Of a stretch of DNA of 64,000 nt, positions 31,052 to 51,682 are shown one piece after another. The stretch comes from an uncultured Chitinophagaceae bacterium. GTDB taxonomy: Bacteria; Bacteroidota; Ignavibacteria; UBA10030; UBA8401. The notes beneath the pieces are model-generated. The model saw only the letters and a list, made by a program, of their open reading frames with translations, had not been told where the DNA came from and did no database searches. Location of the stretch: assembly GCA_964439265.1 (NCBI GenBank), contig CAYTOA010000002.1, positions 46,589 to 110,588 of the forward strand, written 5' to 3'. Position 1 is the stretch's first letter; every line of letters begins with the position of its first letter. The position numbers and the translations under genes are program-made.

Positions 31052-31080
31052 GTTGCGAAACTTCGCAACATGGTTTTCTC
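31052..31080 (+). terminator. Possible terminator after the tRNA
   Basis: Palindrome GTTGCGAA-ac-TTCGCAAC followed by atggTTTTcTcTc. The loop is very small, so this is tentative. Confidence 0.3.
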
Positions 31081-31130
31081 TCAGTTGTTTTGAGTATCTT
31101 ACCGCATCGACCAGGTTGCAGAACATTTCA

Positions 31131-32456: not shown

Positions 32457-33956
32457 ATGAAGAATCCTCTTCGATCTCTATGGGAAAGCGCGCGTCAGTA
32501 TCGCTTTGAGATTCGGCATCTCACGGTGCTGTTTCTCGTCCTGATTGTATTCCAGATAGCGATCTCCTTCGTCCATAAGATTTCTCTCCAAAAGATCCTC
32601 ATGGGGACCCAGGAGTGGTACCAACAGGATTCTGCCGAACGGCTCGCGAATCTAACGGCTACGTCTCTTGAACTGCTGCTTGAAGCGAAAACGAAAGACA
32701 AGATTCTGGAAAAACCGGAGATAGAAAAAATTATCGGAAATCTCAACATCATCTTGAGCCAGCAATACCTGCATCAAAATGTCCAGGAGCTTTGTCTTCT
32801 TGTAGAGATGGATTCATCGATTGTGGCGATTGACGACGGACGCGTCCTGTATTCTTTTGTCTTTGACGAGGACAAGAAGCTCCCCCCGTCGTCGTGGAAT
32901 CACTCCGACGCCATTCGAATGTACGCCCGGATGCAAACGGCGTTCCGTGCGGAAGAACAAGTGCAGACCATCGTAGGGAAGGGGGAGACGTTTCACATCT
33001 TCGTCCCTTTTGTACCGCGCGGTGAATTCGTCGGTGCAATGTATATGAAGAATACGCCCGATTTTTCGATCATCACGAATGAGATGATATCAACGTATGA
33101 TCAAACCGCGATCACGTATACGGCGTTAATTTTCTTCGGCCTCCTTGCGATGTTTTTCATCTCGACCTATACGCTGCAGGAACGCAACAAGGCGCAGCAG
33201 TTGTTGTTCGACGAGCAAAAGCATCATCTCGCAGATCAGATCAGTACTCAGAACGAGCTGCTGTTTACGAAGCGCATTTACCATACCCACCATAAGGCCG
33301 AAAAAATAATGGGCTTTATCAAGGAAGACGTGCGATTGCTGAACGTGGGGAATATAGATTCAGTGAAGGTTCGAATTAACAGATATGCGAACTTTATTGC
33401 ACGCGTCATTTATGATATGAAGTGGTATGATCCTCCGGTGCAAACAATCCGCAGCCCAATTTTCGTGACTGATCTTAATAAGGTCTTGCGATTTCTCGTG
33501 GAGAACGTCTTCCAGAGGATTTCGACGATGAGCGACGTCATTTCCTTTTCGTTCGAACTGGATGAGAATCTTCCCATTGTCCATATTAACGAGTTCGTTG
33601 TCTGGGAAGTCTTTGAGCCGATCATACAGAACTGCATCGACCATGCAGAGAACAATAGGATCACCATCACGATCAGTACAAGCTATGACGCCGAGTCCCG
33701 GGTGTCGCGAGTCAGGATCATCGACAATGGGGCCGGCATCGCTCCGTGGCTGCTCGAAGTGAACGAAGAGGGGATAAAACCCATTTTTCTCGAGCACACT
33801 TCAACGAAAAGCACCGGAATAGACCGCCATGTGGGGTACGGTTGCTATATCGCCCGAGAGATCGCGCGCGCGCGATGCGGCTGGGATCTCGATGCGGAAA
33901 ATGTTCCCGGCGGCGGGTGCGTCTTCACTTTTACCATTCCTAATTCATTGTCATGA
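32457..33956 (+). CDS. Sensor histidine kinase with two TM helices, a ~190-aa periplasmic domain and an atypical His-rich DHp
   Basis: TM1 LTVLFLVLIVFQIAISFV and TM2 ALIFFGLLAMFFISTY. Putative phospho-acceptor region RIYHTHHKAEKIMGF. ATPase boxes EPIIQNCIDHA, IIDNGAGI and GYGCYIAREI. Confidence 0.8.
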   Translation: MKNPLRSLWESARQYRFEIRHLTVLFLVLIVFQIAISFVHKISLQKILMGTQEWYQQDSAERLANLTATSLELLLEAKTKDKILEKPEIEKIIGNLNIILSQQYLHQNVQELCLLVEMDSSIVAIDDGRVLYSFVFDEDKKLPPSSWNHSDAIRMYARMQTAFRAEEQVQTIVGKGETFHIFVPFVPRGEFVGAMYMKNTPDFSIITNEMISTYDQTAITYTALIFFGLLAMFFISTYTLQERNKAQQLLFDEQKHHLADQISTQNELLFTKRIYHTHHKAEKIMGFIKEDVRLLNVGNIDSVKVRINRYANFIARVIYDMKWYDPPVQTIRSPIFVTDLNKVLRFLVENVFQRISTMSDVISFSFELDENLPIVHINEFVVWEVFEPIIQNCIDHAENNRITITISTSYDAESRVSRVRIIDNGAGIAPWLLEVNEEGIKPIFLEHTSTKSTGIDRHVGYGCYIAREIARARCGWDLDAENVPGGGCVFTFTIPNSLS

Positions 33957-35416
33957 CCATACACTCGGAAAAAGAAATCAGCGTTCTTCTCATTGAGGAT
34001 GAAGAGTTCGATGTTCGGCGGATTCGAAATACGGTCAAGCCGCTCTCGCACATCATCAACATCCGGAAGGTCATATCGAACGGCCGTCTCGCCCTGGACG
34101 AGCTCAATGCTTCGAAGGAACTGTACGATGTTATCATCATGGACTTCCAGATCGCCGGGGGGTTAATGGGCGAGCAGCTCATCCGTGAGATCAAGAAGAT
34201 CGACCCTGCCTTTCAGATCATCGTCGTGACGAAGATGACAGTAAACCTTGCCGATTACGATTTTGCGAACAGTTTGATGCAAGCCGGGGCATACTGGTAC
34301 TGCACAAAATATCCGGGAGATATTGACGAATTCATCTATCAGCCCACGGATTTTTTGTTGTCGATCATCAACGCGTTCCAAAAAAGGGTTTTGGAGAAAG
34401 AACAGACTAAAACGAAAAAGAAACTCCTTCATACCGTCGAGGAGACCCTCTCGCAGAATATCATCATCGGGGTATCACCGCCCATCGTTCGACTGCGCCA
34501 GCAGATCGAAAAGTGCGCCGAGAGTGATGCCAATGTGATGATCTCCGGTCATTCGGGGACGGGGAAAGAACTTGTCGCAGTGAACATCCATCATCGGAGC
34601 AAGAGGCGCTTTGAGAATTTTGTGCCGATCAATTGCGGGAGTATCCCCAATGAGCTGATCGAAAGTGAACTGTTCGGATACGAAAAGGGCTCTTTTACCG
34701 GAGCCACGAATTCCAAGCTCGGACTATTTGAACTCGCCAATCATGGAACAGTTTTTCTCGACGAGATCACCGAACTTCCTTTGGCGGCGCAGGTGAAATT
34801 ACTGCGGATCATCCAGAACGGCGAAGTAGAAAAAATTGGCAGGAGGGAATCCCTTAAGGTCGATGTCCGGTTGATCGCCGCGACCAACAAGAACCTGGAA
34901 AAAGAGGTCGAAGAAAAACGGTTCAGGGAGGATCTCTATTACCGCCTCAACGTTGTCCCGATCGAAGTTCCTTCGCTTCTAGACAGGGGAGAAGATATTC
35001 CTCTGCTGGCAGATTTCTTCCTCCAACAATTTTGCAACGACATGGAACGTATGAAGCCGGTCGTCGACCCGGAGGCGATGGCAATTCTTCGCAACGCGTC
35101 ATGGAAAGGCAATGTCCGGGAGCTAAAGAACGTTGTTCACAGACTTCTCTTTCTTGAGCAGGCACACATCACTGTTGATGTTGTTCGGATGGCGATTGGA
35201 ACGCACCCTCAGTTGTTATCCATGTCGGGGAACGACATTTTGAAGGTATTAGGGCTCGCCGAAGGGACATCGCTCCGCGACCTCGAGTACGTCGTCCGCC
35301 GAAAATTCATCGAATTCGTCCGCTCCAATTCATCGTCCGATGCCGAGGCGGCAAGAAAACTCGGACTTGCCCCGCCAAACTATCATCGATTATGCAAGGA
35401 CCTTGGCATTAAATAG
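33953..35416 (+). CDS. Sigma-54-dependent response regulator (NtrC family: receiver, AAA+, Fis-type HTH)
   Basis: Walker A GHSGTGKE, sigma54-contact loop ESELFGYEKGSFTGA, Walker B TVFLDEI, and C-terminal HTH AEAARKLGLAPPNYHRLCKDLGI. Its start overlaps the kinase stop (ATGA). Confidence 0.9.
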   Translation: MTIHSEKEISVLLIEDEEFDVRRIRNTVKPLSHIINIRKVISNGRLALDELNASKELYDVIIMDFQIAGGLMGEQLIREIKKIDPAFQIIVVTKMTVNLADYDFANSLMQAGAYWYCTKYPGDIDEFIYQPTDFLLSIINAFQKRVLEKEQTKTKKKLLHTVEETLSQNIIIGVSPPIVRLRQQIEKCAESDANVMISGHSGTGKELVAVNIHHRSKRRFENFVPINCGSIPNELIESELFGYEKGSFTGATNSKLGLFELANHGTVFLDEITELPLAAQVKLLRIIQNGEVEKIGRRESLKVDVRLIAATNKNLEKEVEEKRFREDLYYRLNVVPIEVPSLLDRGEDIPLLADFFLQQFCNDMERMKPVVDPEAMAILRNASWKGNVRELKNVVHRLLFLEQAHITVDVVRMAIGTHPQLLSMSGNDILKVLGLAEGTSLRDLEYVVRRKFIEFVRSNSSSDAEAARKLGLAPPNYHRLCKDLGIK

Positions 35417-35578: not shown

Positions 35579-35596
35579 CCGGCACAAAATGTGCAA
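35579..35596 (+). promoter_or_regulatory. Candidate sigma-54 (-24/-12) promoter
   Basis: ccGGCACaaaatgTGCAa, compared with the consensus TGGCAC-N5-TTGCA. The GG (35581-82) and GC (35593-94) are separated by exactly 10 nt. It lies downstream of the sigma54 activator gene and ~385 nt upstream of the TonB-receptor start. Confidence 0.35.
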
Positions 35597-35981: not shown

Positions 35982-38900
35982 ATGTCATCGTGCACCATCC
36001 GAAATCTTACATTGTCCTTCGTACTCCTTCTGTTGATGAACAGTCTCTCCGTTGCGGGAACTACCGGAAAAATAGCGGGGAAGGTCACGGAGAAAGAAAC
36101 CGGCGAACCGCTCGTTGGCGCGAATGTCATCGTGAAGGGAACTACTCTTGGGACGGTCACTGATATTAATGGTTATTACTCCATCCTGCTTGTGCCTCCC
36201 GGTGTTCAGACTGTGCTCGTCAGCATGGTCGGTTATTCAAGTGTGACAGTGAACGAAGTTCGAGTTCGCATCGATGAAACTTCACCGGTCGACGTTCAGC
36301 TGGCGCAGGCAGAAATCAAAATGGGTGCCGTGACGATAATTGCAGAACAAAACGTGGTAAGAAAAGACGTCTCGGGGAGCGTCTCCGCAGTGCAGCCCCA
36401 AGAGATTCAAACCCTTCCGGTGACTACGATCAATGATGTTGCGGGACTGCAAGCGGGCGTTGAGAACGGATTGATTGTCAGGGGCGGAGGGGCGAACGAG
36501 CTGCTTCTTCAAGTTGACGGTGCGACGCGTCGCGATCCCAGAAACAACCAACCTATTTCTAATATCGCGTTGACCTCAATTCAGGAAGTCTCTCTCGAAA
36601 AAGGGGGTTTTAATGCCGAGTATGGACAAGTGCGTTCGGGAATAATAAACATCGTAGAAAAAGAAGGGGATGCCGCTCACTATTTTGGTTCCTTCAACGG
36701 CAAATACAGTCCGCCGCAACAGAAATATTTCGGCATCTCCGAATACGATCCGAATTCGATGTGGAACAAGCCATATCTGGATCCGGCGGTCTGCTGGACG
36801 GGAACTCAAAATGGCGCTTGGTCGACATACATGCAAAACCAATATCCGCAGTTTCAAGGCTGGAACGCCGTTTCGCAGTCCCTTCTTCAGCAGGGGATTA
36901 ACTTATCGCCGGCAGCTTGCCAGCGTTTGTATGAGTGGCAGCACAGGCAGGAACCCGACACCAAGTCGCCCGACTATAATCTTGACGGAACTTTTGGCGG
37001 CCCGGTACCAATCATCGGCGAGCAGTTGGGCAATCTTCGATTCCTCACCAGCTTTGTCATGAACAGAACCATGCTGCTTATCCCGCTCAGCCGTCCGGAC
37101 TACGAGGACTATGATTGGTCAATAAAAATGAATTCAGATTTAAACTCAAAAATGAAGTTGACGTTAAACGCATCAACAGGCAAATCCTACAATGTCGCCA
37201 TCAACGCGACGGATAATGGGTTCTATAATCAATCATATCTTACTCAGGCTGCGGGAACCTACCCGTTTTGGAATCCGGCGGACTTTCTCCAAACGCCCGA
37301 TCAGATTGCCGGCGTAACGTACGAAGAGAGATCGAGCAGGGTGTATACTAATTCCTGGTATTCTACCGCCGACGTCACTGACTTCAACGCTTCAGCCAAA
37401 CTTACTGCTACCGTAAGCTCCTCAACGTTTTATGAAATAAGCGTTGAAGATCAACATCGAAGTTATCTTACGGCGCCTATCGCCGCGCGTGACACAGCCC
37501 GGAACTTTGAAATAACTCCCGGAATTTTCGTCGACGAAGCACCATTTGGATACAGTCCGGCCCTTACGGACGGCAACGGTCCACTTGGTTCGGCGATCGG
37601 AGATTTGGGCTTGTTTTTCGGAGGCCACAGTGCCACAGCGCACGATTCGAGCAGTCTTAATACGGTTACGGTTAAGGGAGATTTAACGAGCCAGGTAAAT
37701 CAAGAGAACTTGTTTAAAGCCGGAATTGAATTTTCGACTTTTGCTCTTCATCTGAATTACGGAACGATAAACCCGGTTTTCAGCGACGTAAACTGGGTGG
37801 ACCAGAGTTGGAGTCCCTATCGCATCGCAGCATATGTGCAAGACAAGATAGAAGCGTACGGATTCATAGCAAATCTTGGTTTGAGACTGGATGTAAGCAA
37901 TCCGAACACAAGTTGGGTGGCGGTGGATCCTTTTGATCAGGCCTATTTCTCTAATTCTTACAGCGCCTCAACCAACTATACGAAAACGAGTGTTAAGCCC
38001 GACGTATCCTTAAGTCCCCGTTTGGGTATTTCGCACCCGATCACAGAAACTTCAAAGCTGTATTTCAACTATGGGCACTTCAAAGAAATGCCTGCCTATG
38101 AAGAGCTCTTCAGAGTTGGACGTGCGGCGGCCGGGAGTATGCTCAATTACGGCGATCCCAACTTACCACAGGCGAAAACAGTTTCGTATGAGTTAGGATT
38201 CGATCAATCGTTATTCGATACATATCTGTTCCAGATTGCGGCCTTCTATAATGATATCACGGATCAGCAGGCATTCACGTTTTACACAAGCGATCAGAAA
38301 GGTATTTCCTACTATGCGGCCAACGACAATAGCTACTCTGATATTCGCGGATTGGAGTTGACTCTACGAAGGAATTCAGGCGATTGGGTACGAGGTTTTA
38401 TTAATTATACGTATCAAGTCGTACGGACCGGTCAGTTCGGTCAGGTAGTCATTGCTGACAATCCAGCAAGTCAAATACAATTTGATAGAAGTCAATCGAA
38501 TCCTCTGTATTCGCTGGTTCTGCAAAAACCCGTTCCGCAGCCTCGCGCAAACGCAAGTATTACATTCTTGACGCCGAAAGATTTCGGACCAACGCGTTTT
38601 GGGATTGCCCCTCTTGCTGATTGGAGTCTCAATGTCATAGCATCGTGGAAAGCGGGGCAATGGCTTACCTACGATCCGCAAAACGTTATCGGCATCGCAA
38701 ACAATGTTGAGGTGACAGATTATTACAATATTAACCTTCGCTTGAACAAGACGTTTGTTTTCAAGTCTTTCTCGGTTATGCTGTTCATGGAAACCACGAA
38801 CTTGCTGAATACGGAACACATGTCAGGAGAAAGTTTCTATAATAATCCCGACTATTTGGCGTATATGGCGTCGCTGCATCTGCCTACAAGCCCTGCCTAC

Positions 38901-39212
38901 AATAACACGAATATCCCCGGCAGTGATCGAGTCGGCGATTACATAAAGAACGGCGACAGTTACCAGCCAGTGCTGTTTAGCGGAAACGTTCGTGGGATTA
39001 CCACTGGCATAGACCCAACTGTTATCTATTATGATAAGCCCACAGGCAGGTATATGAACTATGTCGATGGCAATTGGGCGGAGGTAGATCACAGCCGTAT
39101 GCAAAAGATCTTAGATGATAAAGCTTACATTGACATGCCGAACAACAGTTCTTTTGACTTCCTCAATCCAAGACAATACTATTTCGGCATTAATTTCTCG
39201 TTCAATCTCTAA
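35982..39212 (+). CDS. TonB-dependent outer-membrane receptor with an N-terminal carboxypeptidase-regulatory-like domain
   Basis: Signal peptide, then GKIAGKVTEKETGEPLVGANVIVKGTTLGTVTDINGYYSI (CarboxypepD_reg). Plug motifs (VSAVQPQEIQ, GLIVRGGG, VDG). A long beta-barrel ending in an aromatic-rich strand, YYFGINFSFNL. Confidence 0.85.
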   Translation: MSSCTIRNLTLSFVLLLLMNSLSVAGTTGKIAGKVTEKETGEPLVGANVIVKGTTLGTVTDINGYYSILLVPPGVQTVLVSMVGYSSVTVNEVRVRIDETSPVDVQLAQAEIKMGAVTIIAEQNVVRKDVSGSVSAVQPQEIQTLPVTTINDVAGLQAGVENGLIVRGGGANELLLQVDGATRRDPRNNQPISNIALTSIQEVSLEKGGFNAEYGQVRSGIINIVEKEGDAAHYFGSFNGKYSPPQQKYFGISEYDPNSMWNKPYLDPAVCWTGTQNGAWSTYMQNQYPQFQGWNAVSQSLLQQGINLSPAACQRLYEWQHRQEPDTKSPDYNLDGTFGGPVPIIGEQLGNLRFLTSFVMNRTMLLIPLSRPDYEDYDWSIKMNSDLNSKMKLTLNASTGKSYNVAINATDNGFYNQSYLTQAAGTYPFWNPADFLQTPDQIAGVTYEERSSRVYTNSWYSTADVTDFNASAKLTATVSSSTFYEISVEDQHRSYLTAPIAARDTARNFEITPGIFVDEAPFGYSPALTDGNGPLGSAIGDLGLFFGGHSATAHDSSSLNTVTVKGDLTSQVNQENLFKAGIEFSTFALHLNYGTINPVFSDVNWVDQSWSPYRIAAYVQDKIEAYGFIANLGLRLDVSNPNTSWVAVDPFDQAYFSNSYSASTNYTKTSVKPDVSLSPRLGISHPITETSKLYFNYGHFKEMPAYEELFRVGRAAAGSMLNYGDPNLPQAKTVSYELGFDQSLFDTYLFQIAAFYNDITDQQAFTFYTSDQKGISYYAANDNSYSDIRGLELTLRRNSGDWVRGFINYTYQVVRTGQFGQVVIADNPASQIQFDRSQSNPLYSLVLQKPVPQPRANASITFLTPKDFGPTRFGIAPLADWSLNVIASWKAGQWLTYDPQNVIGIANNVEVTDYYNINLRLNKTFVFKSFSVMLFMETTNLLNTEHMSGESFYNNPDYLAYMASLHLPTSPAYNNTNIPGSDRVGDYIKNGDSYQPVLFSGNVRGITTGIDPTVIYYDKPTGRYMNYVDGNWAEVDHSRMQKILDDKAYIDMPNNSSFDFLNPRQYYFGINFSFNL

Positions 39213-39245
39213 ACGAAGAATTCTGATCATGAGAGGTAGTACAGT

Positions 39246-41471
39246 ATGACGACAAAATATCTGCCAAGGGCAATCACGGTGGTCCTGTTATACAGCGTTT
39301 TTGAGCTGATCGGTTTCCAGGAATTGCATGCCCAGGTTTATGGACCTCAAGAAGTCAAATGGTTATGGGTGGGTTCCTTACGGCATTGGTTCTCGAGCGC
39401 TTGTGCTGAAATTGAGTATGGCAGAAGGGGAAGAGGCCTTCATTTGAACACGGACCAGGATGATGGGTTGCGCTGGCCAGCACAGTACCAAAATCAGGAT
39501 CATAGTGTCGGCAAAGCATTATGGATTGGCACGACAAATTTTACAGATCCGACGAATGGGCTGACGTACCCGTACAAGGTAATCTCCCTTGGGCGGTCAA
39601 ACATGTACATCAACTCTGTCGTGTATCCTGAAGAATTTAGACTTGTCGGCCGATTTAATCATCCGACCGTTCTCGTCGATAACGTGATCGCGAATGATCT
39701 CGACGCCAATGATCTTAACTTAGGCGGCGGCGAAGATGAAATCAATCCCAGTCTGCCTGCAGATCGTATGATCTACAACAGGGCAAATACGCCGTTAGGG
39801 ATAACGATATACAGAAAAGTTCTTGCCTTTACGCAACAGTACAACGACAACTATTTCATTTATGAGTACGTCTTTAAGAATACGGGTCTGATAGACAATA
39901 CCGGCGGGCAAATGTCGCCTGCCAGAACACTGACGGGAGTGGTCTTTGATTTTCGGTATCGTCTCGCTGATGATAATGATGGCTACATTGAAGGATGGGG
40001 GTTTCCCTCTGAAAACTACGGGAAGAATACCATAAACGATGCCATCGGTCAGGATGCTGCTCATTCGCTTGCTGCTCCAAACAATTTTCGCGCCAACCTC
40101 GCGTATTACGGACCAAGTTCAGCGTCGACCGGAGTATCGGATGATATCGGCGGACCGGATTTTGTCGATGGTCACGTAATGGGCGGAACGCACTTTATGG
40201 GGGAATTAGTTTTGCATGCTGACAAGTCGGCGAGGGATACATCCGATGATCTTACGCAGCCAACTACGACACAATTCATGGGCTCAGACGGCACGATCGA
40301 AAGCATTGACGCCACCTATCCATTTAATGCCGGCCTGATGACGCAACAGTATCAGTCAATGACTGCCGGTCACCCGGTACATACACACGCTGAACAAGTA
40401 GGAGAAGATGTGAACGGCTGGCCGACGGCCTTTGCCAATACATGGGGAGGAAACACCGGCGGTTATCAAAATCAACAGGGCTTTGGACCGTATACCATTG
40501 CGCCGGGAGACAGTGTCCGAATTGTCATTGCTGAAGCTGTTGCGGGAATTAATCACACGTTCAATCAAGGAGTTGCACGAACCTGGTACGCATGGCATTC
40601 GAACGGAAATAGCGGCACTACGGCACTGCAACTTCCTGCGGGAGCTCCCTGGAACGGGGGCACAACGACGGATGCAAACAGATATAAGAACGCCTGGGTG
40701 TTCTCGGGTAAAGATTCGTTGTTTCAGACGTTTCGAAGGGCGAGAGCGAATTTCGCCGGTGGATATAATATTCCCAACCCGCCGCCTCCCCCGGATAGAT
40801 TTTCAGTGACATCCGGTGGCGACAGAATTACTCTTCAATGGTCTGGTAGCGCAGAATCATCGCCGAATTTCAACGGATACCAGATCTACCGCTCGGTGAC
40901 CAAGACCGATACGACGTTCCAGTTGATCTTCTCTTGTGATAAGAATAACGTTGTGCATTCTTATGACGACAAGACGCCTCAGCGTGGATTCAATTATTAC
41001 TACTATATACAAACCAAGGATAACGGTTCGACAAATAATATTGAACCGGGTGTCCCGCTGGTAAGCAGTATGTTTTACACGATGACGAACACGGGAGCGA
41101 CGCTTTTGCGTCCGGCCGGCAACAGCCTTTCGCAAATACGTGTGGTCCCCAACCCCTATAATATCAGAGCAAGGGGAATTCAATTTGGTTCAGATATTTC
41201 CGTTGCAAATCAACTTGCATTTTTCGGGTTGCCGCCGATGTGCACGATCAGAATATTTACAGAAACGGGCGATTTAATTCAAACAATCAACCATACGGAT
41301 GGAAGCGGTGACCAACGATGGAATTCGTTGACATCTTCCGGCCAGATTATCGTGAGTGGATTGTACATTGCGTACTTCGAGGTTACACAAGATTACACCG
41401 ATCCAAACACCGGGCAGGTGGTTTTTAAGAGCGGCCAAAGTATTTACAGGAAATTTATTGTCATCAGATGA
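39246..41471 (+). CDS. Secreted 741-aa protein of unknown function with an FN3-like domain and a C-terminal beta-sandwich resembling a T9SS/FlgD-Ig sorting domain
   Basis: Signal peptide AITVVLLYSVFELIGFQELHAQ. FN3-like PPPPDRFSVTSGGDRITLQWSG..FNGYQIYRS. C-terminal VVPNPYNIRARG...CTIRIFTETGDLIQTI...GLYIAYFEV. It is 33 nt from the receptor gene. Confidence 0.7.
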   Translation: MTTKYLPRAITVVLLYSVFELIGFQELHAQVYGPQEVKWLWVGSLRHWFSSACAEIEYGRRGRGLHLNTDQDDGLRWPAQYQNQDHSVGKALWIGTTNFTDPTNGLTYPYKVISLGRSNMYINSVVYPEEFRLVGRFNHPTVLVDNVIANDLDANDLNLGGGEDEINPSLPADRMIYNRANTPLGITIYRKVLAFTQQYNDNYFIYEYVFKNTGLIDNTGGQMSPARTLTGVVFDFRYRLADDNDGYIEGWGFPSENYGKNTINDAIGQDAAHSLAAPNNFRANLAYYGPSSASTGVSDDIGGPDFVDGHVMGGTHFMGELVLHADKSARDTSDDLTQPTTTQFMGSDGTIESIDATYPFNAGLMTQQYQSMTAGHPVHTHAEQVGEDVNGWPTAFANTWGGNTGGYQNQQGFGPYTIAPGDSVRIVIAEAVAGINHTFNQGVARTWYAWHSNGNSGTTALQLPAGAPWNGGTTTDANRYKNAWVFSGKDSLFQTFRRARANFAGGYNIPNPPPPPDRFSVTSGGDRITLQWSGSAESSPNFNGYQIYRSVTKTDTTFQLIFSCDKNNVVHSYDDKTPQRGFNYYYYIQTKDNGSTNNIEPGVPLVSSMFYTMTNTGATLLRPAGNSLSQIRVVPNPYNIRARGIQFGSDISVANQLAFFGLPPMCTIRIFTETGDLIQTINHTDGSGDQRWNSLTSSGQIIVSGLYIAYFEVTQDYTDPNTGQVVFKSGQSIYRKFIVIR

Positions 41472-42331
41472 TGCTACTTCATTTGGAGAATGCAATGCAT
41501 AATACGTATCAAAACATGTACTCTTCTGCGTTAAGGTTCATTCTGGCGGGCATATTGTGCTGTGCGGCAATCGGATGCGACAGCGTGCTGCCGGCTAAAT
41601 TCAAAGCGAAGGACATTAATGCTCAGGACATTGATCTGCGGGCAGGCAAGCTGCTTGCGAGCGATACCGTCAATGATGCCCATGGAATTACTGTCGCCTA
41701 TCAATATGGTCCTGTCCTAGACAGCGCAGGTATCCAGAAGCTGGATAGCGCGGGTAATCCCCTCTATCGAAGCGTTCCGGTTACATGGTCTGTGCTTTCT
41801 TCACGGCCACTCGAGAGCTTTTCCGGCGACACAGGCGGCACGGTTAATCAGATCATCCATACGAATTTCCAGTCGTTAGCCGACAGCCTGCCGTCGCTGC
41901 ATTCGGATTCGTTGTTGTCGATAAGTTATGATGTTGCTTACAAAGTCAGTTATGCAGTATTAAGAGTCAGCCAAGCGGAAGATATTTATATCTATACGAG
42001 TTTGTATTACTATCTCGTCGGCAACAACATAAGCAATGCAGGCGATTATGTTTCTGTCGACCTCGTAAGCAAAGATACTTTGGCGTTAAGCTCTTCGCTA
42101 TTAATGCCCCAGGAAAGTGTCTATGGGTCCACGGAAACCATTGCTGACGCCCAGGCCACGTCGATTGTCTCACTTATTGGCGCGCGATATACATTTCATG
42201 TGGACAAGGCCGGCGTTTATCTGGTCCGGTTCACGTTAAGCAATCCGACGGAAATAAGTAATCCCCAGGCTCAGGTTTCCGGGTTTCCGAGCATTGCGGA
42301 CAAATTTAAAGTCGTTATTCTGTCATTTTAG
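41468..42331 (+). CDS. Lipoprotein of unknown function
   Basis: Lipobox in LAGILCCAAIGCDS. Its start overlaps the upstream stop (ATGA). I recognised no family motif. Confidence 0.65.
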   Translation: MMLLHLENAMHNTYQNMYSSALRFILAGILCCAAIGCDSVLPAKFKAKDINAQDIDLRAGKLLASDTVNDAHGITVAYQYGPVLDSAGIQKLDSAGNPLYRSVPVTWSVLSSRPLESFSGDTGGTVNQIIHTNFQSLADSLPSLHSDSLLSISYDVAYKVSYAVLRVSQAEDIYIYTSLYYYLVGNNISNAGDYVSVDLVSKDTLALSSSLLMPQESVYGSTETIADAQATSIVSLIGARYTFHVDKAGVYLVRFTLSNPTEISNPQAQVSGFPSIADKFKVVILSF

Positions 42332-42363
42332 GAAGAGTGTAATTCGAAAAGGAGTACAAGAAA

Positions 42364-43380
42364 GTGAAACGGTTTATAATAACATGCTTAACGGCAATTA
42401 TGATAATCGGATTGCTCACCTCTCCGTCGTATGGTCAGCAGGTAAAGCTTGCGCAGACCGGTTTCAATTTTCTTAGCGTATCTTCTGATGCGACCGCAGG
42501 CGGAATGGGTGACGCTGTGAATTCTTTTTCAGGATATTCAGGAGCGTTAACTCATAACCCGGCTGCGATGGCGGAAATGCCAGGATTGCTGAATCTCAAT
42601 GTCAGCGTTAATGACTGGATTGCAGATATCAAGTATCTGTCTTTTAGCGCGATAGTCTCTCCGTTGTCGGGAGAATACGGCGTGATTGGTTTAAGCATAC
42701 AATCTGTCGACTATGGGGATGTTTTGACGACAATGGTCAGGCCGGATAATTCGGGCTATATTGATACCGGGGTGATGGACCCGGCTGCGTTGGCAGTGGG
42801 TATTGGCTATGCGAAAGCAATTTCTGATCGCTTTAGCGTTGGCGGTCAAGTTCGATTTGCCTATCAATCGTTGGGCAGCAGTGTCGTTCCGGGCGGGAAT
42901 TCTTATGTGACGAAACAAAACGTTGCAAGTGCGGTTACTTTTGATTTCGGTACGGTTTTTAAAACCGGTATCAAGAGCCTGGCGTTTGGGATGTCGATAA
43001 GGAATTTTTCCCAAGACGTAACATATGAAGAAGAGAGTTTTCAGCTTCCCTTGTTATTTACTTTTGGTATTTCTGCAAATCTTCTCGATTTCACCGAATT
43101 TCGCGGCTCAAATCAATCTTTTATTCTCTCCTGTGATGTCGCTCATCCCACCTCTCATCCGGAACAATTGAAGATAGGGGCAGAATATGAATTTATGAAA
43201 GTGATCGCGTTGAGAGGCGGTTACATCACCGGTGACAGCGAAGACGGAATGACATACGGCGTTGGCATTTCTTCCGCCGCTCTCGGTCTAGGGTCAACGG
43301 ACTTCAGGATCGACTATTCCTACACGCCGTTTGGCGTGTTTAATAATGTACAGAGATTTAGTGTATCGTTTTCAATGTAA
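42364..43380 (+). CDS. PorV/PorQ-like outer-membrane beta-barrel protein
   Basis: GTG start after AAGGAG and signal peptide ...SPSYGQQ. GFNFLSVSSDATAGGMGDAVNSFSGYSGALTHNPAAMA resembles the PorV/PorQ N-terminal signature (FL.i...AR..GMG.A..A..d.a.a...NPA.la). Alternating beta-strand pattern with C-terminal ...RFSVSFSM. Confidence 0.65.
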   Translation: MKRFIITCLTAIMIIGLLTSPSYGQQVKLAQTGFNFLSVSSDATAGGMGDAVNSFSGYSGALTHNPAAMAEMPGLLNLNVSVNDWIADIKYLSFSAIVSPLSGEYGVIGLSIQSVDYGDVLTTMVRPDNSGYIDTGVMDPAALAVGIGYAKAISDRFSVGGQVRFAYQSLGSSVVPGGNSYVTKQNVASAVTFDFGTVFKTGIKSLAFGMSIRNFSQDVTYEEESFQLPLLFTFGISANLLDFTEFRGSNQSFILSCDVAHPTSHPEQLKIGAEYEFMKVIALRGGYITGDSEDGMTYGVGISSAALGLGSTDFRIDYSYTPFGVFNNVQRFSVSFSM

Positions 43381-43395
43381 TACCACAGGAATGGA

Positions 43396-44718
43396 ATGAA
43401 TATGAAAATCGCACGATTTATCTTGTTTGTCTTGGTTCCCCCCGTTTGCGCGCTTGTTCTTCTCAGCGCCTGCAATAATTTTGCGACGCCGCCTCGGATT
43501 TGGAATCCTGGCCAATCGTACTTGCCGGGGGCAGTGATTTCTGGAGTGTCGCCGTCAATTTCAGCCATTGCCGGAGTGAGAGAAATCACCGTCGTCGGAA
43601 ACGGCTTTTCGAAAGTTGCCGATTCGAACTGGGTCTGGCTTGGGACACAGCAAGCGATCGTCAAGAGAGTCTCTCTCGGTGCTGCCGCCGATACGCTAGT
43701 TATTTACAGACCGCCCAATAATGGACTGCTTACGCTCAAGGTCGTGGTCCTCGGATCTGATTCTATCGGCACTACTCCCTACGGTTTGGAGTCCCCCGTA
43801 AGCACGTCGGATATCAGCTCGATTCCGGCTACGTACCTCGTCATGGAAGCAGGCAAGAATGACACGATGTTGATCGGCAGTTATGTACAAAGTCCAAAAG
43901 GCTGCTATATCTACAAGTTATCGCCAAATGGGGTCGATATTAACAAGTACTTGGATACTGCCTATCTGAAACCACTAATAAACAAAAAGGCAACAGATTT
44001 CGCACAGGGTTTTGTAGATATGAAATTTGGTCCGGGAGGATTTTTGTACGCCACCTTCGGCACGGCAAGCACCACCGCGAAATCCCTTTACTGTCTCGAA
44101 CCAGACAGCGCGACGCCCGTGGTGTATGCGAAATTTACGGCAGCCAATAACGCCGGATACTTCGATTTTGACGACAACGGAAATTTATATACGGGCAAAA
44201 GCACCGGGCTGTTTTTGGTTAAACGGGGTGCGACGCCGCTCATCGGTGCAGCGCCGGTCGCCGTCGGAGACTATGCGGGCATCACATTTGTCGAGATTCG
44301 CGTGTTCAATAAGTTCGTCTACGCTGCGAGCGCTACCAATGTATGGATGAGCCCGATCAATTCCGACGGGACGGTAGGCAGCAAGCAGCAGCTTGTCAAT
44401 ATTTCGTCCGATACTGCATTTACGGGCGATAAGATCACCTCGATAAACATTGCTGCTGATGGCACGCTGCTCCTTTCCGTGTCGAACAACCCGACGTATT
44501 CACTGTATATTTTACAGAATGGTTCCCTCACGCCTTACTATAAAGATAATATTCTTCCGACAGGAATAGATCAGTTGATCTGGGGGAGCGACAGATATTT
44601 GTATCTGAGCCGGGGTAAAACGGGAGCAGCGACCGCCGTTCGATTCTATAAGATGGGAATAGCAAAAGAAGATAATACACCGCTGCATGGCGCGCCATAT
44701 CTCGGCCGGGGTTTGTGA
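43396..44718 (+). CDS. Lipoprotein with an IPT/TIG-like domain followed by a beta-propeller-like region
   Basis: Lipobox LLSACNN. ISGVSPSISAIAGVREITVVGNGFS...VWLGTQQAIVKRVS is IPT/TIG-like. Later repeats such as GFLYATFG and GNLYTGKSTGLFLV suggest propeller blades. Confidence 0.6.
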   Translation: MNMKIARFILFVLVPPVCALVLLSACNNFATPPRIWNPGQSYLPGAVISGVSPSISAIAGVREITVVGNGFSKVADSNWVWLGTQQAIVKRVSLGAAADTLVIYRPPNNGLLTLKVVVLGSDSIGTTPYGLESPVSTSDISSIPATYLVMEAGKNDTMLIGSYVQSPKGCYIYKLSPNGVDINKYLDTAYLKPLINKKATDFAQGFVDMKFGPGGFLYATFGTASTTAKSLYCLEPDSATPVVYAKFTAANNAGYFDFDDNGNLYTGKSTGLFLVKRGATPLIGAAPVAVGDYAGITFVEIRVFNKFVYAASATNVWMSPINSDGTVGSKQQLVNISSDTAFTGDKITSINIAADGTLLLSVSNNPTYSLYILQNGSLTPYYKDNILPTGIDQLIWGSDRYLYLSRGKTGAATAVRFYKMGIAKEDNTPLHGAPYLGRGL

Positions 44719-44950: not shown

Positions 44951-46690
44951 ATGAAATTGGGCAAAACGTTACTATTTGTTCTTTGCTTAGTTCTGGTCGC
45001 CAGTATCGCCCAGGCGAAAGTGATTCATGGGGGCAAGGTTGCCGGTGACACAGTACTGATCATTCCGCAGACAACGATCGCGCCCGTCATCGACGGCGTA
45101 GTGGATCCAATTTGGAATTTGGTAGATGCTACGTGGATGGAATATTGCCTACCTCAAAGCGGCAACTACCCAAGCGACTGGTCAGACATTTCTGGCTGGG
45201 TCAAGCTGCTGTACGACAGCCATAATCTCTATGGCCTCTACTATGTTCAGGACGACGTGATCGATACGACGACCGCCATAGACTGGCAAATGGACGGTGT
45301 GGAGTTCTATATCGACGCAAACAATACCCATACGTCTACCATTAGCGTTAACCAGGCTTCGTCTGTTGCATATCAATTCAATTTACGACCCGCTCAAAAC
45401 ATCGACTCTGTTGAAGGAAAAACAGGAGCAGGAGTAGGGAAGGGCTTAAAGTATAAATGGATCTTGGATACGGCTTCGATTCACAACGGCGGTCCGAGCG
45501 GTTATTTTGTGGAATTTTCGTTCCCGTTGGATAGTATCGGTTTCAAGAACAAAACGGTTCCAGGCACGAAAGTCAGTGTGCAATTTCAGCTGGACGATAA
45601 CGATCTTACTGCAGACGGCAGGATCCATGTCATGAACTGGTGGAATTCGCCGAACAATACTGATTACCAGACGACACAGGGCTGGGGCAATGCTGTTTTC
45701 AGTACAGACCCTGCAATTGACACAAAATACGTGTTCTTGAAGACTACAACAGCTCCAGTCATCGACGGCAAGCGGGATGCGATTTGGGATCTTGCAAACC
45801 AAGCATCCATGGATTATCTCTTAAATCAACCCTTAGGCAATGTTCTAAGCAATGTTAATCCTCAGGATAACAGTTGGAAATTCTATGGCTTGTATGATGA
45901 CAAATACATTTATGGTCTCTTCACAGTTTATGACGATATCATCGATACTACCACAGCTGTTGATTGGCAGATGGACGGGATAGAGTTCTATACAGACGCG
46001 AACAATACCCACACATCGACGATAAGCGTAAATCAGGCCAGTTCTCTCGCATACCAGCTTAATTTAAGGCCCGCGCAGAAGATCGACTCGGTTCAGCCAG
46101 CGATCAACAAGGGCCTCCAATACAAGTGGTCTCTCTTTGGCCAGGGTCATGAAAATGATACCGTTTTCAGTAGCATGTCCGGCTGGCAGTTAGAATTCAA
46201 ATACTCCCTTGACAGTTTGGGCCTTGGCGGCGCAACGCTTGGGAAGATATTCAGCTTCCAATTGCAAGTTGATGACAACGACCTGACTACCGATAACCGC
46301 GTTCATGTTTCAAATTGGTGGAATTCGATCGCCAATTCCGATTACCAGACGACACAGTATTGGGGCGATGCCGTCCTCGGTCCGACGATCGTTACGGCTG
46401 TGAAGGCTCAAAAGACTTCAGTTGCCAGCGAGTACCGACTTGAACAAAATTATCCGAATCCGTTCAACCCATCCACGCAGATCACATTCACGCTTGCAAA
46501 GAGCGGAATCGTGAAACTCGCCGTCTACAACATACTGGGACAGCAGGTTGCTACGTTGGTGAACGGGACAAGGAATGCCGGTCCTCAAGCTGTTACATTC
46601 AATGCCAGTTCACTTTCCAGCGGCGTCTATTTCTATAAATTAGAGGCAGGCGGGACGGTGTTAGCAAAGAAAATGATGTTGTTGAAGTAA
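44951..46690 (+). CDS. Secreted protein with two tandem CBM9-like (DOMON-like carbohydrate-binding) domains and a T9SS C-terminal sorting domain
   Basis: Signal peptide ...ASIAQAK. Two copies of PVIDG..D.IW......W(K)LLYD...LYGL..V.DD.IDTTTA.DWQMDG.EFY.DANNTH. The CTD reads [14 protein letters not shown]...VYNILGQQV...SGVYFYKLEAGG...KKMMLLK. Confidence 0.8.
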   Translation: MKLGKTLLFVLCLVLVASIAQAKVIHGGKVAGDTVLIIPQTTIAPVIDGVVDPIWNLVDATWMEYCLPQSGNYPSDWSDISGWVKLLYDSHNLYGLYYVQDDVIDTTTAIDWQMDGVEFYIDANNTHTSTISVNQASSVAYQFNLRPAQNIDSVEGKTGAGVGKGLKYKWILDTASIHNGGPSGYFVEFSFPLDSIGFKNKTVPGTKVSVQFQLDDNDLTADGRIHVMNWWNSPNNTDYQTTQGWGNAVFSTDPAIDTKYVFLKTTTAPVIDGKRDAIWDLANQASMDYLLNQPLGNVLSNVNPQDNSWKFYGLYDDKYIYGLFTVYDDIIDTTTAVDWQMDGIEFYTDANNTHTSTISVNQASSLAYQLNLRPAQKIDSVQPAINKGLQYKWSLFGQGHENDTVFSSMSGWQLEFKYSLDSLGLGGATLGKIFSFQLQVDDNDLTTDNRVHVSNWWNSIANSDYQTTQYWGDAVLGPTIVTAVKAQKTSVASEYRLEQNYPNPFNPSTQITFTLAKSGIVKLAVYNILGQQVATLVNGTRNAGPQAVTFNASSLSSGVYFYKLEAGGTVLAKKMMLLK

Positions 46691-46710
46691 CATCACGATA
46701 GACTCACAGA

Positions 46711-46749: not shown

Positions 46750-46786
46750 CAGTTCACATTATTTGTGTCCGTCGGAGTCGCTGAAA

Positions 46787-48748
46787 ATGCATCTTCATAT
46801 TATCGACATTGGAATTATCCTTCTTTACATCACGTCGACCATCTTTATCGGCTTCTACATTTCGAAAAGAGCCTCTAAGGACATTCATAACTATTTTCTC
46901 GGGGGAAACAGTATTCCCTGGTGGCTCTTAGGCGTTTCCGATGCCTCGGGAATGTTCGACATCGCGGGCACCATGCTTCTGGTCTACTGGCTCTCGGTGT
47001 ACGGAATGAAAAGTATTTGGATACCTTGGATCTGGCCGGTCTTCAACCAAATCTTCCTCATGGTATATTTGTCTCCGTGGCTGCGCAGATCGAACGCAAT
47101 GACCGGTGCAGAATGGCTGAAAACACGGTTTGGAACGGGGAGAGGAGCGACCCTCTCACACTTCGCCGTGGTTATTTTTGCCCTCATCAGCGTTATAGGC
47201 TTCCTGTCGTATGGCTTCAAAGGAATCGGGAAATTCGCCGTTGCGTTTCTTCCCCCACTGGTCACCGACCCCGCGATCCTGATTCATTATCCCCAGATCA
47301 ATGCAAACCTCTATGCGTTGATCCTCATGGCGATCACGACGATCTATGTCGTGAAGGGAGGGATGATGAGCGTGGTGGCGACCGAGGTGGTGCAGTATTG
47401 CATCTTAACGGTTTCCGCTATTGCGATCGGATGCATCGCGATGTACCACGTTTCGCCGGAGATGATATCGAGCGTCGTACCGGCGGGATGGAAGACACTG
47501 TTCTTTGGCTCGAACCTGAATCTTGATTGGTCGTCAGTACATTCTGCGGCCGCCACGAAAGTTGTCGCCTTCAACCAGTGGATCAAGACAGATGGATATT
47601 CTCTTTTCGGCATTTTTTTTGGAATGATGGTATTCAAAGGTCTCTTTGTCGCCGGAGCGGGCCCCGCTCCAAACTACGACATGCAGCGCATTCTCTCAAC
47701 GCGGAGCCCGAAAGAAGCCGCAAAAATGAATTCTCTCGTCAGCGTTGTGCTTAATCCGACGCGTTATTTCATGGTAGCCGGACTGACGGTTCTCGCTCTG
47801 ACGAATTTCGACACGCTCTATAAGAGTTCTACGACAACTCCGGATTTCGAAGCAATTCTTTCGGAAGTGCTCGCACACTATGTTCCGGTGGGTCTCCTCG
47901 GCCTTCTCATGGCTGGTTTCATTGCGGCATTTATGAGCAACTTTGCCGCTACGGTGAACGCTGCTCCCGCGTATATTGTGAACGACATCTATAAACGCTA
48001 CATAAATCCGAACGCGGCGTCGAAGAAATATGTGCGCATGAGCTATGTCGCCTCCATTGCCGTCGTCATCGTGGGCATCACAACGGGATTCTTCGTCGAG
48101 TCCATTAATCAGATCGCTCTGTGGATCGTCGCTTCGTTGTGGGGAGGGTATACGGCTGCCAACGTCCTGAAATGGTACTGGTGGAGGTTTAACGGCTTCG
48201 GGTATTTTGTGGGAATGGTTTCCGGCATTGCTACGTCCTTGATCCTCCTTCTCCTCCAAAGTCTCAATCTATTTCCGTATCTGAACGATTGGCCTCTTCC
48301 TGCCAATCCGAGTATGAATTCATTTCCGCTTATTTTCTTAATCTCAATTATCGGCTGCGTCACTGCGACGCTCTTAACCGAACCAGAGAGCGACGAAGTG
48401 CTGATGAGTTTTTACCGTTCCATTCGCCCGTGGGGTTTCTGGAAGCCGATCCATGAGAAAGTTGTCCGTGTCTCTCCTGGATTTGTCGGGAATAAAAACT
48501 TCAAGCGAGATATGGCAAACGTTGCCGTGGGAATGACTTGGCAAATTACGCTGATGGCAACGCCGGTCTTCCTGGTGCTTCGGGAATTCTCCTCCTTCGG
48601 TATCTGTATCGGTGTCCTTATCGTGACATCGCTGATTCTAAAATTTAACTGGTGGGATAAACTTGATGCGTCGTATGGCGACAACTCCGTTGTGTCGGAA
48701 GGTTCAATCGTTGAAAAGGAGATTCCGCTTGCATTAAAAGAAGCGTAA
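46787..48748 (+). CDS. Sodium:solute symporter family (SSS) transporter
   Basis: About 13-14 TM helices. The N-terminus IIDIGIILLYITSTIFIGFYISKRASKDIHNYFLGGNSIPWW is typical of SSS/SGLT-like carriers. I prefer the ATG at 46787. Confidence 0.85.
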   Translation: MHLHIIDIGIILLYITSTIFIGFYISKRASKDIHNYFLGGNSIPWWLLGVSDASGMFDIAGTMLLVYWLSVYGMKSIWIPWIWPVFNQIFLMVYLSPWLRRSNAMTGAEWLKTRFGTGRGATLSHFAVVIFALISVIGFLSYGFKGIGKFAVAFLPPLVTDPAILIHYPQINANLYALILMAITTIYVVKGGMMSVVATEVVQYCILTVSAIAIGCIAMYHVSPEMISSVVPAGWKTLFFGSNLNLDWSSVHSAAATKVVAFNQWIKTDGYSLFGIFFGMMVFKGLFVAGAGPAPNYDMQRILSTRSPKEAAKMNSLVSVVLNPTRYFMVAGLTVLALTNFDTLYKSSTTTPDFEAILSEVLAHYVPVGLLGLLMAGFIAAFMSNFAATVNAAPAYIVNDIYKRYINPNAASKKYVRMSYVASIAVVIVGITTGFFVESINQIALWIVASLWGGYTAANVLKWYWWRFNGFGYFVGMVSGIATSLILLLLQSLNLFPYLNDWPLPANPSMNSFPLIFLISIIGCVTATLLTEPESDEVLMSFYRSIRPWGFWKPIHEKVVRVSPGFVGNKNFKRDMANVAVGMTWQITLMATPVFLVLREFSSFGICIGVLIVTSLILKFNWWDKLDASYGDNSVVSEGSIVEKEIPLALKEA

Positions 48749-49085
48749 CCGATCATCAAAGAATGTTCCTTTGCGCGGTCACGCTGGATTTTAGAAACAA
48801 CGCCATTGCGTCACTCATGCCCGAACTGCAACGCCGGCCTCTGTAGATTTTTAGCTGATTTTTATTAGATTCTATATGCAATGAGCATCAGAGGATCACG
48901 CTTCTTGCGGGATGCGAACGTTATTCTATGCGCATTGTGATCTTGCCCCTCAAACTGAGGATACTCACTGACAAAGTGCGCTGTGGCAGCTTCTGATTCC
49001 ACGAATTAGCAGTGGTGACATGAAGTAATTGCCGGATAACGTGGCCCGACGGAAACCGCCCGCTTACGGTCCTCCAACGAATCGT

Positions 49086-51320: not shown

Positions 51321-51338
51321 CGTCGTTTCCAATAAATA

Positions 51339-51654: not shown

Positions 51655-51682
51655 TGTTCTTTATGAAAATAGTATAGTATCT

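Follow-up and report, generated by a model that had tools for sequence, protein, structure and literature searches.

A conserved, SusD-less TonB-dependent receptor cassette encoding a predicted type IX secretion cargo and a PorV-family barrel

Results

A five-gene cassette conserved across phyla

The window analysed here is a stretch of 64,000 nucleotides from an uncultured Chitinophagaceae bacterium (GTDB lineage Bacteria; Bacteroidota; Ignavibacteria; UBA10030; UBA8401), taken from contig CAYTOA010000002.1 of GenBank assembly GCA_964439265.1 (positions 46,589 to 110,588, forward strand). It carries a cassette of five genes, all on the forward strand and separated in the open reading frame (ORF) list by gaps of 33, −4, 32 and 15 nt. 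The genes encode a TonB-dependent receptor (TBDR) and four proteins of 741, 287, 338 and 440 aa that we named p741, lp287, PorVL and TIG440 (Table 1). The cassette recurs in the same order in many phyla, and comparison of its copies suggests that p741 is a type IX secretion system (T9SS) cargo whose C-terminal domain (CTD) is tied to the PorVL barrel. A preliminary description of this DNA had reported the tight packing and the domains of the five genes, the CBM9-like (carbohydrate-binding module 9) and sodium:solute symporter genes downstream, and the lack of a SusD-like tetratricopeptide repeat (TPR) lipoprotein. The ORF list and the domain scans agree with it on each of these: both downstream genes have Pfam and NCBIfam matches, and no scanned ORF of the window matched SusD in either database. 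Its statement that there is no glycoside hydrolase (GH) is correct for the window, where domain scans found none, and incorrect for the homologous loci, which carry GH94, GH5, GH12 and GH2 genes.

A scan of one genome per species yielded at least 412 confirmed p741 matches, and the best 80 of them were taken for a survey of lineages. These 80 belong to Ignavibacteriota/Melioribacteraceae, Kryptoniota, Calditrichota, KSB1, Neomarinimicrobiota, Fidelibacterota, Delongbacteria and WOR-3, and some are metagenome-assembled genomes labelled Bacteroidota or Cytophagia. The window proteins were searched against the six-frame ORFs of 85 homologous loci (numbered L###; homologous proteins are numbered P####). 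In nearly all 85 loci the genes for the TBDR, p741, PorVL and the TIG protein follow one another on one strand, and a TBDR gene lies directly upstream of 84 of the 86 p741 genes. The same-order cassette is thus present in about 80 species-level genomes from more than eight phylum-level lineages, with TBDR, p741 and PorVL all well conserved among the loci. Because one gene order recurs in about 80 independent loci, the order is not due to chance. The cassette is real and conserved, and the co-conservation of the five genes, which had been put forward for testing, is borne out across phyla, with lp287 as the variable member. In KSB1, Calditrichota and Neomarinimicrobiota one commonly finds two or three TBDR-p741(-PorVL) modules in tandem; L033 has three TBDR-p741 modules, and other tandem loci are L004/L005, L032, L042-L044, L047, L070 and L074.

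Table 1. Genes, domains and a candidate promoter of the cassette and its surroundings (positions in the window)
Feature	Position	Strand	Basis
Periplasmic solute-binding protein (SBP) SBP_bac_1/8, first gene of the upstream sensor trio	31053..32441	+	Pfam
Histidine kinase (HATPase_c)	32457..33956	+	Pfam; upstream position conserved
Sigma-54-dependent response regulator (Response_reg, Sigma54_activat, AAA_lid_14)	33953..35416	+	Pfam; upstream position conserved
Candidate sigma-54 promoter CGGCACAAAATGTGCA (GG-N10-GC)	35580..35595	+	Pattern match with 2 mismatches; weak
TBDR, 1076 aa	35982..39212	+	Pfam, NCBIfam
p741, 741 aa, secreted non-lipoprotein	39246..41471	+	ORF list, AlphaFold, homologues
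p741 N-domain, residues 30-512, predicted beta-supersandwich with a long helix at its end, then the PPPPP linker	39333..40781	+	Model
p741 FN3-like domain, residues about 518-615	40797..41090	+	Structure model
p741 family-specific C-terminal beta-sandwich (CTD), residues 630-741	41133..41468	+	Model, motifs
lp287, 287 aa, lipoprotein	41468..42331	+	ORF, lipobox
PorVL, 338 aa, GTG start, PorV/PorQ-family barrel	42364..43380	+	NF033709
TIG440, 440 aa, lipoprotein with N-terminal IPT/TIG Ig-like domain and beta-propeller	43396..44718	+	Pfam TIG, profile matches
CBM9-like protein with canonical T9SS type-A CTD	44951..46690	+	PF06452 at 6e-42, PF18962/TIGR04183
Sodium:solute symporter (SSF)	46763..48748	+	PF00474, TIGR00813
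GDSL-like acylhydrolase with C-terminal TPR repeats	49029..51320	+	Pfam

The receptor and the domains of p741

The TBDR is of the size of SusC and contains CarbopepD_reg_2, Plug and TonB_dep_Rec_b-barrel domains according to Pfam and NCBIfam, with a CarboxypepD_reg-like domain at residues 31-118 followed by the plug and a long barrel. It matched PF07715 with 33 bits (cutoff 23.9) and PF00593 with 71.6 bits (cutoff 27). It did not reach the SusC/RagA family TIGR04056 (76.6 bits against a cutoff of 368.25), with which only residues 30-160, the N-terminal extension, could be aligned.

The translated p741 sequence begins with a signal of the signal-peptidase-I type, cleaved between LHA and QV and lacking a lipobox, and the Ala-Gln at the cleavage site is nearly invariant across the family. 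Cleavage of PorVL likewise seems to precede Gln (between YG and QQ, window 42364-42440; the p741 counterpart lies within 39246-39335). Signal-peptidase-I substrates of Bacteroidota follow a "Q-rule", which both proteins fit. Neither p741 nor lp287 matched a Pfam or NCBIfam family, and p741 had no match in the PDB by sequence. The p741 homologues, more than 528 in number, 45-67% identical and spread across phyla, are all unnamed or called "hypothetical". An AlphaFold model of p741 built with a 40-sequence alignment (pLDDT 85, pTM 0.81) consists of the signal peptide, a beta-rich N-terminal domain (N-domain, residues 30 to about 510), a PPPPP linker, a fibronectin type III (FN3) domain and a C-terminal beta-sandwich at residues 630-741. 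The last of these, together with the motifs described below, agrees with the CTD-like beta-sandwich that had been noted at the end of the protein. A subgroup of homologues (P0063, P0101, P0112 and P0118, 800-850 aa) has about 90 additional residues between FN3 and CTD, which probably form a further Ig-like domain.

Because a fold search with the full-length model returned FN3 tandems only, the N-domain (about 480 aa) was predicted again alone (pLDDT 85, pTM 0.89). Foldseek found no close solved relative. The best matches, which are weak (TM ≤ 0.33), were beta-supersandwich domains of GH94, GH116, GH63, dextran dextrinase, YidC P1 and copper amine oxidase, and the GH94 enzymes among them were cellodextrin and laminaribiose phosphorylases and cyclic beta-1,2-glucan synthase. 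The predicted fold class is a carbohydrate-associated one, and at TM ≤ 0.33 it gives no more than a hint of carbohydrate binding. SusD identity was considered for p741, lp287 and TIG440 and rejected, since none of them matched a SusD profile and p741 is predicted to be beta-rich rather than an all-alpha TPR protein. For p741 and lp287 the blank Pfam and NCBIfam searches also answer the question, raised beforehand, of whether either is a diverged SusD or a known enzyme; neither appears to be.

An exhaustive phmmer search collected 415 representatives of the N-domain at 50% identity. We examined seven longer architectures, in which beta-helix/DUF1565, Chlam_PMP, BNR/Sortilin propellers or leucine-rich repeats are added to the N-domain. 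Because all seven end in a canonical T9SS CTD (PF18962 or FlgD_ig), the N-domain is predicted to be a module of surface proteins that are exported by the T9SS, and one that is widespread and undescribed. The seven proteins (P0178, P0184, P0203, P0216, P0226, P0252 and P0291) are multidomain and 1000-1600 aa long.

The N-domain contains many invariant D, E, H and W residues, and motifs that include VVLHADKS and MTAGHPAQTHAEQ. One could envision from this that p741 is a surface enzyme of a new glycanase/lyase family, a SusG analogue that feeds the TBDR and is still tethered by the barrel. Its identity of 45-67% across phyla and the invariant acidic, His and aromatic residues would fit an enzyme, as would the existence of free-standing paralogues without a TBDR, the fusion of the N-domain to modules that are typical of secreted proteins active on carbohydrates (beta-helix/DUF1565 and BNR), and a window cassette that otherwise contains no hydrolase. 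However, p741 matches no catalytic family of Pfam or NCBIfam and no PDB sequence, and its nearest folds, weak as the matches are, are accessory beta-supersandwich domains that are non-catalytic in most of the enzymes concerned. Moreover, the strict adjacency to the TBDR and the co-variation of N-domain and TBDR (see below) are closer to the SusC/SusD relationship than to the looser placement of enzymes in a polysaccharide utilization locus (PUL). We regard the enzyme hypothesis as unlikely.

PorVL is a PorV/PorQ-family barrel distinct from the housekeeping proteins

The preliminary description had called the barrel PorV/PorQ-like and had named a FadL/OmpP1-type channel as the alternative. PorVL matched NF033709, the PorV/PorQ family, over its full length and above cutoff (177.2 bits, cutoff 90; residues 31-338 aligned with positions 1-326 of the 326 in the profile), and its homologues carry the NCBI name "PorV/PorQ family protein". 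When the PorVL family profile was compared with the PDB, the sole significant match was Flavobacterium johnsoniae PorV (6h3i_F, E 2.9e-5), whereas TodX (6z38) gave E 0.68. In Pfam and NCBIfam PorVL had no match to Toluene_X/FadL and none at E ≤ 0.01 to the PorP/SprF families. The first assignment is thus confirmed and the FadL-type alternative fails. PorVL scored below the equivalog cutoffs for PorV (72.1 against 250), PorQ (71 against 220) and PorV2 (38.8 against 325). With these scores, and with two PorVL-like copies in some loci, identity with the housekeeping PorV or PorQ was rejected.

Six-frame ORF searches placed PorVL no more than 1.4 kb downstream of 73 of the 81 p741 genes, and there is none beside the paralogues with canonical CTDs; genetic linkage of this kind marks cognate pairs. 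Of the eight genes without a downstream PorVL, about seven, mostly lower-scoring extra tandem copies, have one by another module or elsewhere in the locus.

The p741 C-terminal domain is tied to PorVL

The CTD of p741 is about 110 aa long, compared with about 85 aa for a canonical CTD. The consensus of the in-locus proteins is IRVVPNPYN ... C.IKIYTE.GDLI.TI.H..GSGD..W..LTSS.Q.VVSGLYIAYFEV ... RKFIIIR, and the window protein has the motifs VVPNPYN, SGLYIAYFEV and RKFIVIR. The family motifs PNP[YF]N, SG[LV]Y and K/R-K-[FL]-x-[IV]-[IV]-R echo PNPFN, SGVYFY and KKLxLLK of type-A CTDs. In favour of this resemblance, an hhalign comparison of the p741 CTD with canonical type-A CTDs, in which PNP[FY]N and SG[LV]Y coincided, gave a probability of 63% (E 6.8e-5); the type-B CTD (TIGR04131/CHU_C) had no match to p741 in NCBIfam or Pfam. 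Since three other canonical-CTD proteins are encoded in the window, the source organism has a T9SS, and it is very probable that p741 is one of the T9SS cargoes.

Three orphan paralogues (P0020, P0023 and P0055), 58-68% identical to p741 over the common part, have a canonical PF18962 domain at the position of the special CTD, so that the p741 CTD is apparently exchangeable with a canonical one. P0023 bears a BNR/PSII_BNR propeller as well. The canonical-CTD paralogues of L086/L087 and L091 are adjoined by neither a TBDR nor a PorVL gene and lie at a conserved position beside a glutaminyl-tRNA synthetase gene. These free-standing genes (L086 8001-10172, L087 5344-7515 and L091 2645-5719) encode proteins that are 67-68% identical over the common part. 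A further paralogue, in L088, has no TBDR upstream, and the contig ends just past the gene, leaving its downstream side out of view. All complete in-locus p741 copies have the special CTD, including second-module paralogues with strongly diverged N-domains. Later tandem modules often lack a PorVL of their own and keep the special CTD, and paralogue N-domains diverge far more than the CTDs do.

With a mean pairwise distance of 0.38 the CTD is the most conserved segment of p741; the corresponding values are 0.54 (N-domain), 0.53 (TBDR) and 0.49 (PorVL). In partial Mantel tests on 67 complete modules, PorVL distances correlated with those of the CTD when TBDR and N-domain were controlled for (r = 0.25, p about 0.0005, a significance that is over-stated for related sequences) and did not correlate with those of the N-domain (r about 0). 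TBDR distances, by comparison, correlated with the N-domain at r = 0.58 and with the CTD at r = 0.10. The pattern persists inside the main orthologous group. This asymmetry, with N-domain and TBDR on one side and CTD and PorVL on the other, is what a model with two putative interfaces would predict.

The special CTD is tied to PorVL by the orphan paralogues, the universal retention of this CTD within the loci, its conservation and the partial Mantel tests. A dedicated barrel that tethers the 741-aa protein, as had been hypothesized, withstood the three refuting checks named beforehand (a diverged SusD or known enzyme, lack of co-conservation, a FadL-type barrel) and gains three independent comparative supports (paralogues, CTD conservation and retention, and distances). 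PorVL is probably a cognate barrel that tethers p741, while a binding or lid role like that of SusD has, in our estimate, slightly less than an even chance.

Alternatively, PorVL might be a shuttle only, serving T9SS export of p741 or of the CBM9-like CTD protein, after which the CTD would be cleaved and p741 anchored to anionic lipopolysaccharide or released. The type-A-like motifs that the p741 CTD keeps would allow this; PorV proper mostly shuttles its cargo (PMC10202324), and a canonical CTD cargo gene, that for the CBM9-like protein, is present in the locus too. Against it, no private barrel accompanies the canonical CTDs of the CBM9-like protein and the orphan paralogues, a single barrel can serve several tandem p741 copies of a locus, and the p741 CTD is longer than usual and better conserved than the rest of the protein, which points to a specific and lasting protein interface. 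We consider a shuttle-only function quite unlikely.

The lipoproteins lp287 and TIG440

The translations of lp287 and TIG440 contain lipoboxes, AIGC followed by D in the former and LSAC in the latter. Homologues of lp287 are recognisable in close relatives only, yet in 34 loci its slot is filled by an ORF of 180-340 aa with a signal-peptide-like N-terminus ending in Cys-D/E; because of this combination lp287 is best described as a variable, apparently fast-evolving and optional member of the cassette. The slot lipoproteins (for example L002 12139-12864 and L047 12062-13087) have little sequence in common beyond the Cys-Asp/Glu after the lipobox, and in many of them another Cys occurs some 25 residues on, within a "D..AC" motif. 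Acidic residues after the lipobox Cys resemble the export signal of surface lipoproteins in Bacteroidota.

The Pfam TIG match, the propeller matches and the lipobox of TIG440 uphold its earlier description as an IPT/beta-propeller lipoprotein. Its profile matched beta-propellers, including the designed "Bagel", Bacteroides hybrid two-component sensors (HTCS) and the PQQ type, and family members match Reg_prop, Tachylectin and SBBP. The sequence is poorly conserved and the position is kept (30-200 bits, compared with 300-500 for PorVL). TIG440 looks like a surface glycan-binding lipoprotein and, less probably, a lid like BtuG.

These features raise another possibility for the barrel, namely that PorVL serves the receptor or the lipoproteins, either by docking TIG440 or lp287 or as a FadL-like channel through which a hydrophobic or acylated product would pass, with the propeller as the true lid. 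The loops of FadL/PorV-type barrels are able to hold surface lipoproteins (PMC12578637), a beta-propeller lid of a TonB-dependent transporter (TBDT) is known in BtuG (see PMC10404256), the TIG gene always comes directly after PorVL, and a GDSL gene, which prompts the idea of an acylated product, recurs in the locus. PorVL distances, however, follow those of the p741 CTD and not those of the N-domain, and orphan paralogues that lack the special CTD lack PorVL as well. The profile of PorVL matches PorV and not FadL/TodX, which argues against a channel, and the low scores of TIG440 relative to PorVL are the pattern of accessory binders rather than of an obligate lid. A function of PorVL for the receptor or the lipoproteins is, in our opinion, very unlikely.

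Carbohydrate setting and regulation

The window contains, besides the TBDR, genes for the SSF symporter, the trio of SBP, histidine kinase and sigma-54 response regulator, the CBM9-like protein and the GDSL protein, and no glycoside hydrolase. GH94 genes are found in 13 homologous loci, as an 812-aa protein in L001, L002, L089 and L090 and by similarity in nine more. L001 has a GH5 cellulase and a cellobiose-2-epimerase-like gene, L004 has a GH12-CTD gene and a LacI regulator, and GH2 genes, ROK and GntR regulators, and MFS and SSF transporters occur among the loci. The CBM9-CTD gene comes after the TIG gene in many loci, and SSF and GDSL genes are recurrent. We dropped phmmer neighbour counts for GH12 and epimerase-like genes, which were inflated by CTDs in common with the CBM9-CTD genes; the neighbour data kept are the counts for GH94, GH5, LacI and carbamoyltransferase and a cluster census. 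The cassette is very probably a carbohydrate uptake locus, of the PUL kind or of the kind of the carbohydrate utilization loci containing TBDRs (CUT loci). The recurrence of GH94, CBM9 and SSF points to cello-oligosaccharides or related beta-glucans as the presumptive substrate, with SSF as the likely inner-membrane uptake step.

The sensor trio is also present upstream of the TBDR in L002, L003, L007, L008, L010, L011, L016, L034, L075, L084 and L089. A candidate sigma-54 promoter, CGGCACAAAATGTGCA, lies about 390 nt upstream of the TBDR start. Matches to the sigma-54 motif are not above chance in the whole window (30 found, 25 expected) and are inconsistent in homologous loci. A scan of 35300-52200 for sigma-70 promoters and terminators gave counts at or below those expected from shuffled sequence and does not inform the operon boundaries.

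Other observations in the window

A perfect sigma-54 consensus, TGGCACACGTGTTGCT, is located at 19311-19326 on the minus strand, about 580 nt upstream of an HDOD-domain gene (17861-18733, minus), in a region rich in two-component genes. Upstream of the cassette, giant PAS-rich hybrid histidine kinases of 1848 and 1698 aa are encoded at 9370-14916 and 21214-26310 (both minus), and an 877-aa Reg_prop/Y_Y_Y propeller protein, which had no histidine-kinase domain match, at 27049-29682 (minus). A T9SS cargo with three cohesin stretches, Big_2, fn3 and Por_Secre_tail is encoded at 56652-59216 (minus). The product of the adjacent gene (59284-63915, minus), also a T9SS cargo, is a beta-helix protein of 1543 aa that carries a type I dockerin and FlgD_ig/Por_Secre_tail. 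The pairing of cohesin and dockerin on these two T9SS substrates hints at an assembly of the cellulosome type on the surface of a Gram-negative cell.

Discussion

The reading that we favour, and to which we give somewhat better than an even chance, is that the cassette encodes a PUL-like glycan importer in which the partner of the receptor is delivered by the T9SS and tethered by a cognate barrel. According to this composite model, p741 would cross the outer membrane through the T9SS and would be held at the surface by PorVL through an uncleaved CTD, instead of being cleaved and lipid-anchored like type-A cargo. The FN3 domain would serve as a stalk. The beta-supersandwich domain would bind a glycan (a beta-glucan or cello-oligosaccharide is the probable one) on or at the outward face of the TBDR, a role that elsewhere belongs to SusD, and accessory binding of glycan at the surface would fall to the lipoproteins and the CBM9-CTD protein. 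The imported oligosaccharide would enter through the SSF symporter and, in homologous loci, would next undergo GH94 phosphorolysis; the SBP, histidine kinase and sigma-54 regulator encoded upstream probably control expression.

The export and retention steps that we propose have a documented precedent in retained CTDs and linked substrate/barrel pairs. PorZ-PorQ and PorU-PorV keep their CTDs, and type-B CTD proteins bind linked PorP/SprF-like barrels for secretion and anchorage (PMC10202324, PMC9143113, PMC12618676). FadL-type barrels can hold surface proteins in the beta-barrel assembly machinery of Bacteroidota, in which BamG holds BamH (PMC12578637). PorV proper is a shuttle, not a permanent anchor, for most cargo (PMC10202324). 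A beta-propeller lid on a TBDT is exemplified by BtuG.

Several points weigh against the composite model. The hidden Markov models of type-A CTDs (PF18962/TIGR04183) leave p741 unmatched even at E ≤ 10, and FlgD_ig alone is reached, at E 0.11. The hhalign probability of 63% is moderate. The canonical-CTD paralogues represent just three or four contexts, two of which are the same conserved locus, and the inflated significance of the Mantel tests has to be added to this. The contacts of TBDR with p741 and of the CTD with PorVL are ones that we infer on a comparative basis. The unusually high conservation of the N-domain, and the fact that p741 has free-standing paralogues, agree no less well with an enzyme than with a lid, and TIG440 could be the real TBDR lid, as BtuG is for BtuB. 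Finally, because the window has no glycoside hydrolase, the presumptive substrate is deduced from other genomes.

How does the cassette compare with known systems? As in SusC/SusD PULs, a long TBDR with a CarboxypepD_reg-like extension comes first and an obligate partner gene next, followed by surface lipoproteins, an inner-membrane transporter and sugar-responsive regulators; carbohydrate-active enzyme genes are present in homologous loci, and TBDR-partner modules are duplicated in tandem. Unlike SusD, which is an all-alpha TPR lipoprotein, the partner consists of a predicted beta-supersandwich, FN3 and CTD without a lipobox and apparently reaches the surface by the T9SS, not by lipoprotein export. 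Furthermore, the TBDR does not reach the SusC/RagA cutoff, and the cassette includes, as an integral and conserved part, a barrel of the PorV family. The p741-PorVL pair resembles the T9SS substrate/barrel pairs SprB-SprF, PG1035-PorP, PorZ-PorQ and PorU-PorV, in which the genes for a CTD protein and for its private barrel of the FadL/PorV type are linked, the CTD presumably stays on for non-covalent anchorage, and several substrates may use one barrel. It differs from the type-B/PorP-SprF pairs in that the barrel is of the PorV/PorQ family and the CTD is divergent and type-A-like. The known pairs serve adhesins, motility or the T9SS attachment complex, whereas the pair described here lies inside a TonB-dependent uptake operon and is found mainly outside the classical classes of Bacteroidota.

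Two other systems are relevant. The CUT loci of Xanthomonas and other Proteobacteria likewise take up glycans without SusD, by a TBDR that is combined with a transporter of the inner membrane, a regulator and degradative enzymes, but an obligate gene for a surface partner and a PorV-type barrel are both absent from them, and their hosts lack a T9SS. In BtuB-BtuG and other TBDT/lipoprotein complexes of Bacteroides, a surface protein other than SusD assists the TBDT, and the cassette also encodes a beta-propeller lipoprotein. BtuG, however, is a lipoprotein lid for vitamin B12, whereas the conserved partner here is a non-lipidated, T9SS-type cargo in a carbohydrate context. We found no published description of the cassette in a search that included the papers on the genomes of Melioribacter and Caldithrix and a review from September 2026 on glycoside transporters of bacteria, and that left most subscription journals outside its range. 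Importers made of a TBDT and a partner, and T9SS anchoring by cognate barrels, are already known kinds; their combination is, as far as this search shows, new.

The SusC/SusD pair is the textbook solution to glycan capture in Bacteroidota, and little work has been devoted to how the many TBDRs of related lineages that are poor in SusD are fed. Sediments, soils, hot springs and the dark ocean harbour some of these lineages in abundance, and the cassette provides a concrete and widely conserved candidate for an alternative to SusD. We tentatively suggest, as a possibility that falls short of even odds, that many phyla of the Fibrobacterota-Chlorobiota-Bacteroidota (FCB) group (Ignavibacteriota, Kryptoniota, Calditrichota, KSB1, Neomarinimicrobiota, Fidelibacterota and others) use a second, SusD-independent architecture for TBDTs that import glycans, in which the substrate-binding partner is a T9SS cargo held permanently by its own PorV-family barrel through a specialised, uncleaved CTD. 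If this is true, there would be a direct coupling between the T9SS and the building of a machine for nutrient uptake, cognate barrels of the T9SS would have a role in a nutrient importer besides that in adhesins and the attachment complex, and the beta-supersandwich protein would represent a new family of TBDT lid or binding proteins. The work also brings to light a new CTD subtype and a new protein family that, clustered at 50% identity, has 415 or more representatives. The GH94/CBM9/SSF context bears on the use of cellulose at the cell surface by non-cellulosomal bacteria of the FCB group.

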